A stretch of DNA of 32,811 bases, from NCBI RefSeq assembly GCF_006345805.1, contig NW_021832730.1:1-32811 (forward strand), written 5' to 3'. Of this stretch, positions 11,829 through 32,811 are shown one piece after another. The position numbers were made by a program, and so were the translations under genes. This DNA is from Octopus sinensis. Lineage: Eukaryota. Numbering within the stretch: position 1 is the first letter of the stretch; each line of letters starts with the position of its first letter. The notes below the pieces were generated by a model. It made no database searches, was not told the origin of the DNA, and saw only the letters and a list, made by a program, of their open reading frames with translations.

Positions 11829-11929
11829 TCTTTTACTGATGAAGTGTGACCTATGGTAGACTAGCTTAATTTAATTTAATTAAGCTGGTCTATCATTAAA
11901 GACACTGAAACGATGCATCGTATAAAAGA
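11829..11929 (+). ncRNA. Type I hammerhead ribozyme
   Basis: Stem I tctttta/taaaaga; core CTGATGA 11836-11842; stem II agtgt/acact enclosing a 19-bp hairpin; GAAA 11907-11910; stem III cgatgcatcg; GUA cleavage triplet ending at 11922. Confidence 0.92.
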
Positions 11930-12301
11930 TGAATTAGGGTAAATGTTTTTAAATTTTACTTATTTCCGAATTACACTACTTGGCGGTTGGAGTTCTGGCT
12001 GCTCTTTCTGGTGGACGAATGGCCTGTTTAGGCCATTCCTAAATTGTTATATTTATATATATTTAGTCTATGACTATTTTCTCTTTTCCACTAGGCCGCT
12101 GGTAGCGATAAATTTTTACTGAATTTTGCTACCCTACTAAATTGATTAATTGATAATTTTCTGACTAATTCTGAGATTGAATCGGCAGTTTATATTTGCT
12201 GCCGATAAGTTGGCGCGAATGCGTTGGTCTTGAAAATTTTAAGACAGATATTCCCGAGGCATTGATACAGTCGCCTCGTGTATATCCGTCTCTCCCAGGT
12301 T

Positions 12302-12402
12302 TCTTTTACTGATGAAGTGTGACCTATGGTAGACTAGCTTAATTTAATTTAATTAAGCTGGTCTATCATTAAAGACACTGAAACGATGCATCGTATAAAA
12401 GA
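12302..12402 (+). ncRNA. Type I hammerhead ribozyme
   Basis: Same motif as 11829-11929, with core at 12309-12315, GAAA at 12380-12383 and predicted cleavage after 12395. Confidence 0.92.
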
Positions 12403-12622
12403 TGAATTAGGGTAAATGTTTTTAAATTTTCACCTTATTTCCGAATTACACTACTTGGCGGTTGGTTGGAGTTCTGGCTGCTCTTTCTGGTGGACGAATG
12501 GCCTGTTTAGGCCATTCCTAAATTGTTATATTTATATATATTTAGTCTATGACTATTTTTCTTTTCCACAAGGCCGCTGGTAGCGATAAATTTTTACTGA
12601 ATTTTTTGCTACCCTAAATTGA

Positions 12623-12709
<87 letters not shown>

Positions 12710-15929: not shown

Positions 15930-16091
15930 AGAGATGAGGAATTATGTACATTACTTACATTATTTACATTTGTCGAATATTTGTCCTCACCTTGTTTGTT
16001 GTTAACACGACCTTTCGGCTGATATACTCTCCAGCCATCATCAGGTGTCTTGGGGAAACATGGCTTCTCATTCCTTAAGTATTTTTCGATG

Positions 16092-19629: not shown

Positions 19630-20052
19630 TCTTTTACTCTATTACGCTTTTACTTGTTTCAGTCATTTGACTGTGGCCATGCTGGAGCACCAACTTTAGT
19701 CGAGCAAATCGACCCCAGGGACTTATTCTTTGTAAGCCTAGTACTTATTCTATCGGTCTCTTTTGCCGAACCGCTAAGTTACGAGGACGTAAACACACCA
19801 GCATCGGTTGTTAAGCGATGCTGGCGGGTACAGATACAGGCACACAAACATATACACACACACACACATATATATTATACATATATACGACAGGCTTCTT
19901 TCAGTTTCCATCTACCAAATCCATTCACAAGGCTTTGGTTGGCCCGAGACTATAGTAGAAGACACTTGCCCAAGGTGCCACGCAATGGGACTGAACCCGG
20001 AACTATGTGGCTTGTAAGCAAGCTACTTACCACACAGCCACTCCTACGCCTA
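19630..20052 (-). mobile_element. tRNA-derived SINE, family B (full length)
   Basis: Homologous end to end with 8328-8747. Confidence 0.9.
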
Positions 20053-21759
20053 TAAATTTCATTTATTAATTTATTGATTCATATATTATTTAAACTTGTT
20101 ATTTGTCTTTTATTTCTATGTCAAAGCTTCGTCAATTATCCAGAATCAAGGATTTATTTAATTTAAGTTTATTCCAGCCTGCTTCAAAACCCCGTAACAG
20201 CGCGTTAACACAATCTAACCAGGATTTTAAGGTTCAGATACATTCACATTAAGAAACGATTAGAATGAAGAATTAAATATCTATTTAATTCCTAGGAGCC
20301 TCACATGCAGAACGTGGAATTCATAAGTTTATCAAGACCTTGGTTGTTAATTGAACTCATGGGTTACTGTAGAAGTGAGTTTTATTTCACATTACATTTT
20401 TCTTTGGGGAGTAACAGCTATCTCCTACTTACTTACCCAGAGAACGTATGAAAAATGGTCAATATTTCCTTCAAACTTTGCTTTTCTTATAACTGTTCAA
20501 GCCGCAAAGTACCCCTCTCAACATATGGCTATGACGCTCCTCCATTATTCGTGATGATCATCAGAGATGCACGTTTTCCCACCTATTAAGGGACATGCTT
20601 TAGTGGATAACGTCAAGCAACTGTCAAGCAAATCTGTGGTATTGAGCAGAATATTTGCTATAACTATATTTCTGCTTCAGCAATTCAGCGCTGAATCGGG
20701 CCGAAGTGAAATGGAAAATAGGTCACTTTCCAAAAATCGATGCCCAGTCGCAAAAGCAGTTTGAAGGAAATAGTAGTTATTTCTTTTGATTTCTCAATAG
20801 AAGCAAATAGGAAATGACATTCACTGAGCTAAAACAAAAATAGATAAATATATAAATAAATAAATAAATTGGTAACACTATTAAAATTTGATAATGATTA
20901 CTGCAATATAAAGACGTAGAGAAAAGCATTAGATAATTCTGAGACGCCGTATTTTATGATCGAATCTCACTGGGACGGGGTTTGCTGTTCTTCCTTTTGA
21001 GAGTGGAGAGTAGAATTAAGAAGATTTGTTTGTGATCAAGACAAATGCCTCCACCTAATGCTCAACGTATCTACAACGAGAATGCCCGTTCTAGGAAAAT
21101 GCGGACAAAAGATAAATGGATACTAACATGTATATTCAATTTTATAGACATTATAATATGGATAATAAGAAGTTCTAACGCTGGAAGTATTCAGTATTCA
21201 CAGTGATGGATACATTTTCTCCCATTACCACTGTGCATTCTTTATTGTGTGTAACTCTTGAGTGACCCACAATACATTGCTCATGCGCAAATAGAATATT
21301 TTAGAAGAGTAGACGTATTTTACTCATTTATTGATCGAGATTTATTAACTGTCAACCGTAAAAGCACACACACACACGCACACACACGCACACACATACT
21401 GGATAATGTAATGACTATAACTGGCAGAGTATTTCTCCTGTTTCCTATTTCTTTCTATCTATTCTGACTTTATTGGTTTCCTTGAAGACATAATTTTTTG
21501 TTATTTATCTGTTTAGATTTTATCTTTTACTAGATATTTTTATAGTCCTACTGTATGTCCTTTGTAATAGATTTGTAGATGTATAAGGTCTCTATCTCCA
21601 AGTATTAGATTTAAACATAAATCATTCTTTATCAGTCTTGCGTGCTGCTTTCAAAACGCAATCATTATTTTACTTTGTTTCTGTCTATCACCGTTTCCAC
21701 TAGCGAATATTATAATTATAACAAGGAAAGACAATGCTCCCAGACCGGGAAAGTAAGTC

Positions 21760-26391: not shown

Positions 26392-26787
26392 ACTCTCTTT
26401 ACTCTTTTTACTCTTTTACTTGTTTCAGTCATTTGACTGCGGCCATGCTGGAGCACCGCCTTTAATCGAGCAACTCGACCCCGGCACTTATTCTTTGTAA
26501 GCCCAGTACTTATTCTATCGGGATCTTTTGCCGAACCGCTAAGTGACGGGGACATAAACACACCAGCATCGGTTGTCAAGCAATGCTAGGGGAACAAACA
26601 CGGACACACAAATAACACACATACGACGGGCTTCTTTCAGTTTCCGTCTACCAAATCCACTCACAAGGCTTTGGTCGGCCCGAGGCTATAGTAGAAGACA
26701 CTTGCCCAAGGTGCCATGCAGTGGGACTGAACCCGGAACCATGTGGTTGGTAAACAAGCTACTTACCACACAGCCACTCCTGCGCCT
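26392..26787 (-). mobile_element. tRNA-derived SINE, family B (full length)
   Basis: Homologous end to end with 8328-8747. Confidence 0.9.
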
Positions 26788-26818
26788 GTAATATATATAT
26801 ATATATATATATATATAT

Positions 26819-28720
26819 CGGAAGGTTTGGAGATGATGTAAGGTATTATATATTAGAAAAATTGAGGTAGAGGTAATCAGACAGTGTTCATATTTGTAGA
26901 TATTTATTATATATATTACATTTTTTACATATAATCATATCATTCGGATTAGCGCTTGCTCCCATTCTAGTGGGTTTTCAAATCAAATCAGTTGTGGGTA
27001 GTTTGAACCTTTTTATAGTTTCGTAGTAGTGGGTGAGAGGATAGTGAGGCAGAGAGAAAATATGTGTGTATGGTGTGTGGTGGTGTGTGTGTGTGGGGTG
27101 CGTGTTGTGGTGTGTGTGCGATTTATTCTGAGAGTGAAGAAGTGTAGTGTTATTTCCGTTGGTCTGCTGGACCCTGTGGTTTTATAAGAACTTTGGCTGT
27201 CCATTTCAATGTCACTGGGTGTGTTGTTGCATAGGTTGGCCTGGCAAATGTCATTTGGGGTCACACTTTCTATGATCATTTCTGGGAGGGTGTGTGGTGT
27301 GTGTGTCTCTGTGTGTCTGTGTGTGTTTTTGTGTGTTGTGGGTGTGTGTGTGTGTGTGTGTATGTGTGTGTGTGTGTGTCTGTGTGTTTGGAGAAGGGGA
27401 GAGAGACAAAAAGAGAAAGGGAAAATAAAAATAATAATAATAAAAATAAAAAAATAAAAAAATAAAAAAATAAAATAAAAAAATAAAATAAAACAAAAAT
27501 AAAAAAAATAAAAAAATAAGAATAAAATAAATATAAAGAATAAAAAATAAAAAAATAAAAATAAAAATAAAAATAAAAATAAAAATAAGTGAGGAAGGGG
27601 AGAGAAAAAATATTTTTGTGTGTTGATATTTATACCAACAACATATATACACACACACAGACTTATACATAATATTTGAAAAAAACTTTTATCGGTTCAA
27701 AATGAACAACCAAATTATACCATCTTGAAAGTTGTATGTCATAGGAAAGTTAAAACTAAAGTGACAATTAAAGGTGAAAGATGAAGTGAATTATAAAGAT
27801 AATAATATAATATGATGTATATAACAGGCAATACACACATCTACACACACAAGATTTTTCCTTCATGTATGTTGAGTAAAGTTTCAGCCATTTAATTTGG
27901 GGGAGAACTAGCTATGAAATGTTTTTCCATATTCCTCCTGAAGGGGGTGTCATTCTTCGGACACTTGTAGAAGGGAAATATCTTAAATTTTCCTTCTCCA
28001 CATGTAGCTAGGTGTGGCTTAGTGGTATTTTGCGTAGTTCTTCCTGCCGAATATGTTGTCGGTGGATCCTGGCTCGCTGGCACAAAGAATTACCAGTTTC
28101 TCCTACGTAATTATCCTTGCATGTGGGGCAGGTTATGCAGTATATGACGTTCTGCGTCTTGCAGTCATATCTGCATTTACTTTGAATATGACACCATTTT
28201 AAATCTTATCTCTCTGTTGCTCTCTATGTATTTGTAGGTGGGGTTGCTGCAGGTCCCACATCTACCATCTCCGCACTCTTTTGCAAAGAATTCCGCACTC
28301 TTTTGCAAAGAATTCCATAAGGCGGAGGTAGAGCTGAAGTTTCTATGTCAGTTGGTTTCTATCCATTGGTATATTGTTCCATGTGTGTGTCCTTTAGGGT
28401 GTCCAGTGTTATGTGTTGGTGGTTTGTTCATATTCTATTTGTTCTATCCAAGTGTTATAGTTGTTGGTTGTATGTATTGTGCTCGTCTTGCTGTTGTGTG
28501 TTGGTTTTTGTGGGGTTTTGGGTTGATGGTTGTCTTTCATATTTTGTGTATCTGTTAATTGGGGGGTTCGGCAGTGTAAGGAGCGGGATTTTGGTTTGTG
28601 TTTTGGTAGGGCTTATTTGATGTCTGGGAGTCCAGTATGTTTGTGGTGTGAGTAGTTTGGTTGTATCTATTCATTGTTTTGGTAGTTTTTTTGTCTTCAT
28701 AATTGATTCTTCACCATAGT
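26819..28720 (-). mobile_element. Inverted, internally deleted copy of the Penelope-like element (5' segment + GIY-YIG + 3' UTR)
   Basis: ~26850-28316 is the reverse complement of 30463-31915, and 28306-28350 is the reverse complement of 28765-28812. 28350-28720 is A/C-rich on the minus strand, like the element's sense strand. Confidence 0.9.
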
Positions 28721-31700
28721 TCTTTTACACCTACACCCACTCCAAACCTCATAGAACTAAAAAATGACATAGATAACTTCAGCGCGCTACCTCCGCCTTA
28801 TGGAATTCTTTGAAAATAAAGAAACAGGAAGATAACTCAATCATAAGAAAAAAAATCCACTTCACCCCTTACAAGGGAAGTGACAAACACCTTGACACGT
28901 ACATAGAAACAATATCCAAATTCCTCTTCACACACACAAATGCAAACAGAATCTCCGCAGAGAAGAAAAGCAAAGCCCTACAAAAAATGAAAAATGACAA
29001 ATCATCGTTATAAAGAAGCTGACAAAGGTGGAGCAATAGTAATTATGGACACAGATTACTACAAAGAAAAGATACTAGAGTTACTGAACAACCAGACATA
29101 TTACAAAGAGGAACCAAACCACCGGAGAAAAACAACAATAAGAAAAATTAGAACTTTAGTCAATGAATATCAGGACTCCTTTACAGATAAGGAGGAAGAT
29201 TATCTATGCAACTCACAAACCAAAGAAAGCAACTTTTATGGATTACCTAAAATTCATAAAAGCTCGGAAATACAGAGAGCCATAAAGGAACAGAGGAACC
29301 ACTACATAAGAGTACAAAGACCTGCAGACCTCACGATGAGACCAATAGTGGCAGGACCCCAGGCAACAAAACACAACAACTAAGCCACTCATAATATACT
29401 CCTCAAACCTCTATGCCCACAGATTCCAAGCTACATAAGGGATGACATAGACTTCATCACACACATTCCAAATACAGTCCCGAAAAACACCATACTTGCA
29501 AGCTTTGATGTCACAAATCTATACACAAACATACCACACACCCTAGGTCTAGAAGCTATAAAACAATCAATAGAAAAATACAGAGAACTTATAGATGAAC
29601 GCTTTCAAGACAAACTTTATCACCCAAGCCACCCAACTAATACTAGAAGAAAACACATTCTCATTCAACAACAAGACATACCGACAGATAAAAGGCACGG
29701 CTATGGGTACAAAATTCGCACCTTCATATGCCAACCTAGTGATGGGCTTCCTGGAGGAAAAAACTATATGACGAAATAGGGAAAGTCTTCGAACACGACT
29801 TCAGAGAAGACATCAAGAAAAGTGGAAACGCTACCTCGATGACTGTTTATCTTTTGGAACAGATCAGAGAGGACCTACAAACATTCCACAACATCCTCAA
29901 TACGCTGCACCCATCTATCATTTCACAATAGATACCAGCCACAACGAACTTCCCTTCCTAGACATCACATCAAAAAACACAACTCCATCGTCACAAACAG
30001 ACATCCACTACAAAAAAACTGACACACATCAATACTTAAATTTCCACTCCTGCAACCCATCCCACACAAAAAGAAACATCCCATATAGTATGGCACGACG
30101 AATATGGCATAGTAACTGATTCACCAATACGATTAATAAGACTAGATGAACTCAAAAGCTTCTCCTAGAGCAAAAATACCCCCTTAAACTAATAGAAAAT
30201 GGAATCACAAGAGCATTAAAATAGACATCACACAACTCAGGACACCCAAAACAAAAACAAAGAAAACACACTATCCTTTTATAAACACACACAACCCTGG
30301 AGTTACCAACATCTTCCAAACATACATCAAACCTACCAATAGCCTTACAGAGCCCCAAATGAAAAACAATTAAACAAATATAGCATAAAAAAACAGTAGA
30401 CGACAGGACAAAAACCTAAAAAACCAACTAACAAGAGCGAAATTCTCTTCAGAAACTAAAACGGAATTCTTTGCAAAAGAGTGCGGAGATGGTAGATGTG
30501 GGACCTGCAGCAACCCCACCTACAAATACATAGAGAGCAACAGAAGAGAGAAGATTTAAAAATGGTGTCATATTCAAAGTAAATGCAGATATGAACTGCA
30601 AGACGCAGAACGTCATATACTGCATAACCTGCCCCACATGCAAGGAGAATTACGTAGGAGAAACTGGTAATCTTTGTGCCAGCGAGCCAGGACACCGACA
30701 AAATATTCGGCAGGAAGAACTACGCAAAATACCACTAAGCACACCCTAGCTACATGTGGAGAAGGAAAATTTAAGATATTTCCCTTCTACAAGTGTCCGA
30801 AGAATGACACCCCCTTCAGAGGAATATGGAAAAACATTTCATAGCTAAGTTCTCCCCCAAATTAAATGGCTGAAACTTTACTCAACATACATTGAAGGAA
30901 AATCTGTGTGTGTGTAGATGTGTGTATTGCCTGTTATATAATCATATTATATTATTATCTTTATAATTCACTTCCATCTTTACCCTTTAATGTCCACTTT
31001 AGTTTTAACTTCCTATGACATACAAACTTTCAAGATGGTATAATTTGGTTGTTCATTTTGAACCGATAAAAAGGTTTTTTCAAATATTTATGTATAAGTC
31101 TGTGTGTGTGTATATATATGTGTTGGTATAAATATCAACACAACAAAAATATTTTTCTCTCCACTTCCTCACTTATTTTTATTTTATTTTTATTTTATTT
31201 TTATTTTATTTTTTATTTTTTATTCTTTATATTTTTATTTATTCTTTATATTTTTTATTTATTTTTTATTTTTTGTTTATTTGTTTATTTTATTTTTTTT
31301 ATTTTTAATTTTTTATTTTTATATTATTATTTTTATTTTCCCTTTTCTCTTTTTGTCTCTCTCTCCTTCTCCAAACACACAGACACACACAGACACACAT
31401 ACACACACACACAAACACACACAACACACACAAAAACACACACAGACACACAGAGACACACACACACAAACCTCCACAGAATGATCATAGAAAGTGTGAC
31501 CCCAAATGACATTGCCAGGCCAAACATGCACAACACACACTCAGTGACATTGAAATGGACAGCCAAAGTTCTTATAAAACCACAGGGGGTCCAGCAGACC
31601 AACGGAAATAACATTCTTCACTCTCAGATATAAATGCGCACACACACACACACACACGCACACAAACACACACACACACACCCACACACACACACTACAC

Positions 31701-31915
31701 ACATATTTTCTCTCTGCCTCACTTCCTCCTCACCCACTACTACGAAACTATAAAAGGTTTCAAACTACCCACAACTGATTTGATTTGAAAACCCACTGGA
31801 ATGGGAGCAAGCGCTAATCCGAATGATATGATATATATGTAAAAAAAATGTAATAATAAATAAATATCTACAAATATGAACCATCTGATCTGATTACCTC
31901 AATTTTCTAATATAT
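28721..31915 (+). mobile_element. Penelope-like retroelement (PLE), 5'-truncated, inserted in (TA)n
   Basis: RT and GIY-YIG motifs followed by a ~1-kb 3' UTR; (TA)n tracts flank the composite at 26788-26818 and 31910-32039. Confidence 0.93.
28723..30873 (+). pseudogene. Frameshifted PLE polyprotein: reverse transcriptase + Cys linker + GIY-YIG endonuclease
   Basis: In order: FTPTP, LRLMEFF, EADKGGAIVIMD, FYGLPKIHKS, MRPIVAG, LASFDVTNLYTNIP, YRQIKGTAMGTKFAPSYANLVMG, WKRYLDDC (YLDD 29832-29843), LPFLDI, YLNFHSC, CGDGRCGTC, NVIYCITCPTCKENYVGETG (~30609-30668), PKLNG and stop TGA at 30871-30873. Many 1-nt frameshifts. Confidence 0.93.
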
Positions 31916-31939
31916 ATATATATATTATATATATATAAT

Positions 31940-32037
<98 letters not shown>

Positions 32038-32039
32038 AT

Positions 32040-32356
32040 GGAGGTGAAAATTGGCCAGTGGTTAAGGCAGCGGACTCGCGATTGTAGGATCGTGGTTTCG
32101 GTTCAAAAACAGGTGTTGTAAATGTTTATTGAGCGAAACACCCTAAAGCTCCACGCGGCTCCGGCAGGAGGTGGTGGTGATCCTGCTGACTCTTTCGCTA
32201 AAACTTCTGTCACTCTTTTTCTTTGTTGGCTGCTAGATAGCCAGCGCGCGTGGGTGGCGTGGCGTCTTTGAAGTCTAAAACAATGAGAAGAGCATAGTGA
32301 CCAGCGATGTTAGCAACATCTGATAGCCCGGTCGGTCACCTTGATCACGGTGATGA
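32040..32356 (+). mobile_element. tRNA(Arg)-like-headed SINE, family E
   Basis: A-box-like tggccagtggttaagg, anticodon-loop-like gactcgcg and B-box-like ggtttcggttc; flanked by (TA)n. Confidence 0.7.
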
Positions 32357-32392
32357 TATATATATATATATATATAATATATATATAATATA

Positions 32393-32811
32393 TTAATAAT
32401 TTAGGGGTAGCAAAAAATTCTAGAAAAAATTCTCCACTACCAGCGGTGAAGTGAGAAAGAAAAAATAGTCAATAGACTATGTAATATACATTCAAAATAT
32501 AAGGGATGGCCATAACAGGACATCCGACTCACTAGAAAGAGCAGTTAACCCAAACCACTAATAGTTGTAATCTGAAATGGAAAGAGAAATAAAAACCGTT
32601 ACCCTATCCTTTTGGACTATGCATAGTTTCGGCAATCTTTTGTAAATAGAATAAATTTATTTACGACTGGCGTTGCACTCTTCAGCAGAAAACCAAGGAC
32701 TAGCATATAGCCACGAGGCGATAATAGCATGCCTCGAGTCTATATGCTATAACTTTTTAAATCCACCATCTCGCGCGGTTTTCTCAGCAGTAAATATAAA
32801 CTACCGATTTA
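32393..32811 (-). mobile_element. Diverged relative of the 473-nt hammerhead repeat (runs off the window end)
   Basis: Blocks are collinear with the circularly read unit of the 10940-12628 array: ttaggggtagcaaaaaattc..ctaccagcgg, atagtc..gactat, agaaagagcag, HHR, cacgaggcga..atgcctcg, cagtaaatataaact.ccgatt. Confidence 0.85.
32608..32692 (-). ncRNA. Type I hammerhead ribozyme (diverged family member)
   Basis: Minus strand: ttttctg CTGAAGA gtgcaa ..gtaaata..tatttac.. ttgcc GAAA ctatgcatag TC caaaagg, with a GUC cleavage triplet. Confidence 0.8.

Follow-up and report, generated by a model that had tools for sequence, protein, structure and literature searches.

A dispersed repeat of Octopus sinensis with a predicted long-stem-II hammerhead, probably a non-LTR retrozyme that a Penelope-like element mobilises in trans

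The window analysed here, 32,811 bases long, is the whole of contig NW_021832730.1 (positions 1-32,811) of the Octopus sinensis assembly GCF_006345805.1, and it carries two insertions of one dispersed non-coding repeat, with units of 451-489 bases and a unit GC content of 36%. The first insertion (10926-12627) consists of an inverted piece (10926-11370), ending at what we call the short end, joined to 2.7 tandem units on the plus strand that end at the long end, with (TA)n flanks on both sides. The second is one unit on the minus strand (32393-32811), which the contig end cuts about 28 bases short of the end of the previous unit and whose long end abuts a (TA)n microsatellite target (32356-32393). 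Over the units of either insertion there is no open reading frame of 120 or more amino acids. Between the two insertions lies a broken Penelope-like retrotransposon (26819-31909, plus strand), frameshifted in the window; it has a 3' copy in inverted orientation, its tail measures ~35 bases, it targets (TA)n and it is of the candidate helper kind.

Other sequences share the window. A short element between two (TA)n runs (32040-32355), with a tRNA-like start as judged by eye, is possibly a SINE, and a further repeat of ~440 bases occurs in three copies (8338-8769, 19642-20092 and 26406-26818); both are also found on the genomic sequence C8, to which we return below. Two related minimal hammerhead-like motifs, CTGATGA ... 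GAAA (10812-10850, plus strand, and near 16044, minus strand), are unrelated to the repeat and probably come from another Penelope-type terminal repeat. For the repeat itself, a tRNA-like internal promoter noticed by eye was dropped because T runs follow it.

Read 5' to 3' on the minus strand, the unit at the contig end opens with a hairpin, H1 (32784-32807), which was obtained by single-sequence folding and is predicted in most lineages of the repeat. In the upstream hairpin that follows (32701-32749), an outer stem, TAGCATATAG/CTATATGCTA, encloses a CGAGGC/GCCUCG helix. The predicted hammerhead then comprises the GGU of loop 1 (32692-32694), the 5' strand of stem I (32686-32691), the core CUGAAGA (CTGAAGA in the DNA; 32679-32685), a long stem II (32631-32678) made of a 5-bp base (G(T)GCAA at 32673-32678 with TTGCC at 32631-32635), an internal loop holding GCC (32669-32671) and an AU-rich extension, next GAAA, a palindromic stem III with a UGCA loop and the triplet GUC (32615-32630), with the predicted cut between 32615 and 32614, and finally the 3' strand of stem I with the AGGG of the outer stem I (32602-32614). 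Downstream, the 5' arm of a long-range helix, Pb (32528-32535, predicted partner 32448-32455), precedes the hairpin Pc (GGAUG/CAUCC, GGATGTCC/GGCCATCC; 32504-32525) and a tail of ~90 bases (32393-32484), which spans the interval between two fixed 3' ends, the short one near 32484 and the long one at 32393, and contains hairpins at 32465-32480 and 32406-32441. All the motifs that a sequence-only reading had named in this unit were found on the minus strand where it had placed them, and the collinearity on which its comparison of two subfamilies depended was borne out by an end-to-end alignment of the window copy with the array at 10926-12627 (~69% identity, E 2e-46). Folding favours the real sequence over 100 of 100 shuffles for the window copy (z -3.5) and likewise for the array unit (z -7.3).

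A copy at G000:C8:44344285-44344711 shares the flank of the window copy and aligns with it without a substitution but with 14 single-base indels, the window lacking the base in 11; by this comparison, the two are probably one locus assembled twice. The match extends over window positions 26790-32811 (G000:C8:44340141-44344711, 93-95%, differences mostly indels), and the remainder of the window, left of 26790, had no match within the 40 kb of C8 sequence compared. This divergence left of the Penelope-like element reflects either a duplicate assembly with a misjoin or a structural variant. One G is absent at 32612 in the window assembly, a deletion that weakens stem I in this version alone; the C8 version has the G, and contigs from two public runs carry it too. 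The contig stops at 32811, and it is the C8 version that shows whether the copy is also tandem: there, the unit is preceded by a 28-base spacer and, before that, by a 5'-truncated second unit, which begins ~4 bases past the predicted cut and borders on (TA)n. This makes the insertion a partial tandem in which one ribozyme is complete.

Across the 2.72 Gb of genome searched, a pattern anchored on stem III gave 5,519 matches against 69 in the control, a lower bound because some lineages lack the pattern's anchor, and a 3' hairpin pattern gave 3,919 against 0. DNA searches with the two window types returned 1,854 and 1,764 first-look candidates, 40 of each being scored, and a profile search of 179 loci and the window returned 503 hits, of which 243 are distinct and cover at least 62% of the model. 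We grouped 234 of these 243 into 20 lineages, 56-97% alike, leaving out nine sequences in seven small clusters; 8 further lineages were found later. The window copy, lineage B10, had been described as a diverged second member of its family: a member it is, but as one of at least 20 lineages and not merely the second. Copies of lineage A, to which the array belongs, are ~97% alike on many chromosomes and were inserted as multi-unit inverted arrays. Pieces of the family also occur in assembled contigs of three of four public runs, contigs that cannot show strand or ends. Literature searches, for which the animal group was partly guessed, listed no paper that describes the repeat family or, for any retrozyme, a footprint of this form; repeat databases may already list the family among unclassified repeats.

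The insertions end at their 3' side in two preferred places. The 317 distinct 3' boundaries divide into 176 at the long end, 118 at the short end, which is 87 model positions upstream of the long one, and 23 in other places; the tail measures 87-91 bases. The sequence continues into (TA)n from 86 of the long and 82 of the short ends, and into the next unit from 62 of the long ends. Complete insertions numbered 144, in loci chosen by similarity or by pattern, so that the proportions are not genome-wide rates: 55 have one long and one short outer end, 72 have one such end with a 5' truncation and 17 are of other forms, with two long or two short outer ends in 0 of the 144. Inversion points and unit numbers differ between loci. 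The 179 truncation points are scattered, and the small number within 3 bases of the cut site (4 of 179) argues that linear monomers are not the main template.

The hammerhead consensus has a core CUGANGA, GAAA and UH in this order. The window unit contains these elements in the same order, with stems I, II and III closing the core and with ends in stem I, as in type I; RNAalifold finds stems I-III unaided. Across lineages, the unpaired catalytic core is conserved and changed cells are still paired in 19 of 19 cases for stem I and 18 of 18 for stem III (19 lineages, a single-locus lineage being left out), in agreement with the sequence-only reading of the element as a ribozyme. That reading had also held the changes at N7 and in the triplet to be tolerated, and we find N7 as all four bases and H17 as A, C or U, with a pattern that excluded G at H17. 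Depending on lineage, the third pair of stem III is G-C, U-A, A-U or C-G, thus taking all four Watson-Crick forms, and departures of the stem from a perfect palindrome are G-U, a pair accepted in whole lineages, with A-C in 0 of 19. The stem III pattern fixed only the central GC of the loop; among the 100 matches listed, reading shows a UGCA loop in 100 and a fully paired stem in 99. In stem I, 188 of 207 copies have complementary bases at the inner four pairs, and six different forms occur among them. Variation at the first stem III pair was set aside as mostly chance (19 matches against 8 in the control, with 3 family copies). One stem III mismatch is present in the inverted array copy (11072-11087, minus strand).

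Rfam gave no hammerhead match at gathering in the window, and no hammerhead family at E<=10 in 32300-32811, likely because stem II is long; its AU-rich extension varies through 10-base indels. A match to an Rfam model is an aid to detection and not the definition of a hammerhead, and the consensus elements and covarying stems make it likely that each unit holds a type I hammerhead, predicted to be self-cutting.

Loop 1 presents GG-Y opposite R-CC in the stem II loop, and GG and CC are both present in 167 of 190 unselected copies. In these 167 copies, the third pair between the loops is C-G in 99, U-A in 60, U-G in 5 and another combination in 3, and the fourth pair is often broken in lineage B. 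The U-A third pair arose in only two or three branches, mainly one clade with a second branch at two loci, and genome-wide counts outside lineage A are small and mixed (U-A 22, control 8; C-A 27, control 1; U-G 48, control 9). A pseudoknot of 3-4 bp between the two internal loops (GGY/RCC), with the GGU and GCC given above as its 5' and 3' halves in the window, is a candidate that may supply the tertiary contact. According to PMC3088659 and PMC6765202, a pseudoknot linking stems I and II is predicted for ~40% of hammerheads, and repeat-type hammerheads with a palindromic stem III may cleave as dimers. The octopus repeat has the palindromic stem III and loop of such dimer-type hammerheads, and its stem III of 4 bp with a tetraloop is enough for a monomer.

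For the fold outside the ribozyme, we guarded against circularity by predicting pairs from one lineage alone and scoring them on the others, and used a null in which one partner gives way to another column that matches it in base and in number of changes on the tree, so that relatedness is kept. With lineage A as the reference, the 95 non-ribozyme pairs hold 20 double-sided changes against 12.8 +/- 2.3 under the null (p 0.002). Over eight reference lineages, double changes reach p<0.05 in seven, and the fraction paired beats the null in all eight (p 0.001-0.022). Of 65 named pairs followed in 20 real copies, 23 have changes in both partners; shuffling, a control that ignores relatedness, gives 13.1 and sliding 3-8. 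In the 8 later-found lineages, 41 of 62 changes leave a standard pair against 34 +/- 6% by chance, or 30 of 48 when the 14 changes from a non-pair are excluded.

Helix by helix, the signal is uneven. Uncorrected p values are 0.01 for the outer stem of the upstream hairpin, 0.016 for H1, 0.07 for Pd, 0.08 for Pb, 0.09 for Pe and 0.13 for Pc, with GAAUGGCC borderline (p 0.06-0.13, also uncorrected). Pa (0.37) and H2 (0.66) do not covary, and in the lineage comparison covariation is absent from the inner H4 stem. The outer stem at 32701-32749, which the sequence-only reading took as a replacement that preserves pairing, is present and covaries, but it is a perfect 10 bp in one sub-lineage and has mismatches in other B sub-lineages. 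The CGAGGC/GCCUCG helix is, as that reading proposed, kept in sequence, but without covariation (p 0.58), and GGATGTCC/GGCCATCC contains one compensatory change together with one fixed U-C mismatch. The claim built on these helices, that the window itself gives evidence of selection on the structure of the whole unit, has to be divided: two sequences from one window could not demonstrate selection, whereas the comparison of lineages supports structural selection beyond the ribozyme in aggregate and unevenly across helices, not for each helix.

We think it unlikely, though it would be compatible with a retrozyme, that only the ribozyme is under structural selection and that the other pairing combines ancestral conservation with chance. 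The lack of covariation in CGAGGC/GCCUCG, H2, the inner H4 stem and Pa would fit such an account, as would the p values of 0.06-0.13 for Pb, Pc, Pd and Pe taken singly and the fact that double transitions by themselves restore a pair; against it stand the aggregate fraction paired outside the ribozyme in all eight reference lineages, the outer stem and the changes in the later lineages.

Some segments are conserved in sequence. CGCGA (32770-32779) and GCCUCGUG (32712-32719), both on the minus strand, are kept in most lineages despite their CpG and are partly complementary to each other; the 3' arm GCCUCGUG is conserved while its partner is often broken, which suggests a role apart from the CGAGGC/GCCUCG helix. 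A conserved GCGGUU arm (32541-32558, minus strand) can pair either with a local GGCUGC or over a long range with GACCGC in the tail, and one-sided changes preserve both alternatives, so that the arm may be part of a folding switch.

The family of the broken Penelope-like element has RT and GIY-YIG domains and is young: near-identical copies and long open frames are found at other loci (L245 and L246). By eye, a CxxC-type motif precedes its endonuclease, as in the clades Neptune and Nematis (PMC8557442). Like the repeat, the family has two kinds of end: at its 30 loci, 19 ends are short, 7 have a tail of ~35 bases and 4 are unscored; all 26 scored ends run into (TA)n. Its terminal repeat has no clear hammerhead, and at these 30 loci neither that terminal repeat nor the rest of the family has homology to the retrozyme unit, nested copies at three loci and one weak hit aside. 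Those retrozyme copies lie in or beside Penelope-like copies (3 of 30 loci: L222, L227 and L236), consistent with a common (TA)n target. The short end of the Penelope-like family has CCTCAATT in common with the short end of some retrozyme lineages.

A closer tie to such elements would exist if the units were orphan pLTRs of 5'-truncated autonomous Penelope-like elements, grown into a satellite by unequal crossover, with their structure selected in the parent, a route proposed in the discussion of bioRxiv 2026.07.22.740005. The insertion footprint is indeed like that of autonomous elements, and our Penelope-like comparison covers one family among 10,201 first-look candidates. Upstream of a unit, however, lies a previous unit, an inversion or a truncation; the masked flanks of 160 repeat loci contain no vestige of either RT or endonuclease, and unequal crossover alone does not make multi-unit inverted arrays of lineage A that are ~97% alike on many chromosomes, so that we consider this origin very unlikely.

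Private mutations strike paired sites without bias (G-U 99, A-C 92), as expected under neutral decay of inserted copies. Between lineages, the ratio of G-U to A-C is 46:26, within a composition-keeping null (p about 0.1), and selection on the RNA strand is thus not separately proven. Two arguments for it were rejected: wobble asymmetry, since slid controls give G-U at about two to three times A-C from composition alone, and the lower sense-strand energy in 20 of 20 lineages, which carries the same composition bias. That pairing is instead kept up in the DNA, by homogenisation of arms through template switching or by ssDNA movement of a MITE- or Helitron-like kind with the hammerhead a dead relic, we find scarcely credible: the long and short inverted ends do resemble terminal inverted repeats, the stem II extension changes in steps of 10 bases and the wobble asymmetry is not significant against composition, but the unpaired catalytic core is kept across lineages, stem I and Pb covary over distances of about 80-100 bases, whole lineages have G-U in stem III whereas none of 19 has A-C there, and inversion points and unit numbers are locus-specific.

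We conclude, with a probability of roughly 0.85, that the repeat is a non-LTR retrozyme, of a kind already known, and that a Penelope-like element mobilises it in trans. The basis for this reading is directly established: many copies in many lineages, covarying pairs, insertion into (TA)n, partial tandems and inversions, and 3' ends fixed at two points. Metazoan non-LTR retrozymes were defined in PMC7229834, which reports circles in coral, mussel and axolotl, proposes Penelope-like helpers and describes, as we find here, tandem low-GC non-coding repeats with a type I hammerhead in each unit. The GC content given above lies below the limit of 45-50% for non-LTR retrozymes. The mussel retrozyme is similar in having about 5,000 copies, and is described as being without most of the archetypal loop 1-loop 2 contact nucleotides. 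In Xenopus, retrozymes were linked to pLTRs, with cleavage in vitro for one of nine predicted elements (bioRxiv 10.64898/2026.07.22.740005). Units of 451-489 bases exceed the 170-400 bases of PMC7229834 and lie within the 51-972 of bioRxiv 2026.07.22.740005; with one full ribozyme, the window insertion would not be 'active' under the two-ribozyme rule of that preprint. The octopus repeat differs from metazoan retrozymes in its long stem II and in that no pLTR homology was found with one family at 30 loci; its two fixed 3' ends, inversions and (TA)n targeting are undescribed in the available parts of the two sources, the word 'inverted' having 0 occurrences in PMC7229834, and both sources leave the retrozyme-Penelope mechanism open.

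The footprint has its counterpart on the Penelope-like side. According to PMC8557442, Penelope-like elements show partial tandems, inverted 5'-truncated copies, a tail of 30-40 bases at one end and a bias for microsatellites, and non-autonomous derivatives such as MRC1 yield multicopy head-to-tail insertions; partial tandem, inverted 5'-truncated copy, one-end tail and microsatellite bias are all found in the octopus repeat, as in GIY-YIG elements and MRC1. Unlike these, as far as that text describes them, the repeat has no ORF, a tail of ~90 bases (versus 30-40) and a full-size hammerhead. In 3' sequence, the one similarity to a partner that was found is a short CCUCAAUU motif, which some lineages have at their short end.

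If the repeat is such a retrozyme, its cycle would likely begin with transcription through tandem copies, the RNA being predicted to cut itself after GUH into unit-length RNAs, which would likely circularise; the palindromic stem III would also permit cleavage as a dimer. A Penelope-type endonuclease would nick (TA)n, and the first nick would prime reverse transcription at one AU-rich point inside the RNA, with synthesis passing the ribozyme site, round a circle or along a multimer, to give tandems. The second nick would prime at the other fixed point ~90 bases away and so give the inverted copy. The predicted cut falls in the middle of the unit, away from both insertion ends, and truncations are not piled at it, which makes a circle or an uncut multimer the likely template. 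New lineages would be founded only by RNAs that fold, cleave and are recognised; selection would then act on structure from one round of transposition to the next, and copies once inserted would decay neutrally. A fuller version, to which we give slightly less than even odds, holds that the insertions of the family record the life cycle of a retrozyme, that a Penelope-type enzyme primes at two fixed AU-rich sites in a circular, fully structured RNA, always leaving one long and one short end and copying through the ribozyme site, that the tail is a structured recognition module and that the hammerhead is a long-stem-II, pseudoknot-stabilised form missed by Rfam.

The repeat adds no new class of system: its kind is already known, and a connection with Penelope-like elements was put forward in 2020, with support from frog pLTR homology in 2026. 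The small novelties are the insertion footprint, the long stem II missed by Rfam and the candidate loop 1-loop 2 pseudoknot; given that Rfam misses this form, other animals may have similar families that go unnoticed. With its thousands of copies spread over many lineages, the repeat amounts to a natural mutagenesis series for an RNA fold. The footprint points to Penelope-type priming at two defined internal sites, and with defined RNA elements in hand, trans-mobilisation and rolling reverse transcription become testable.
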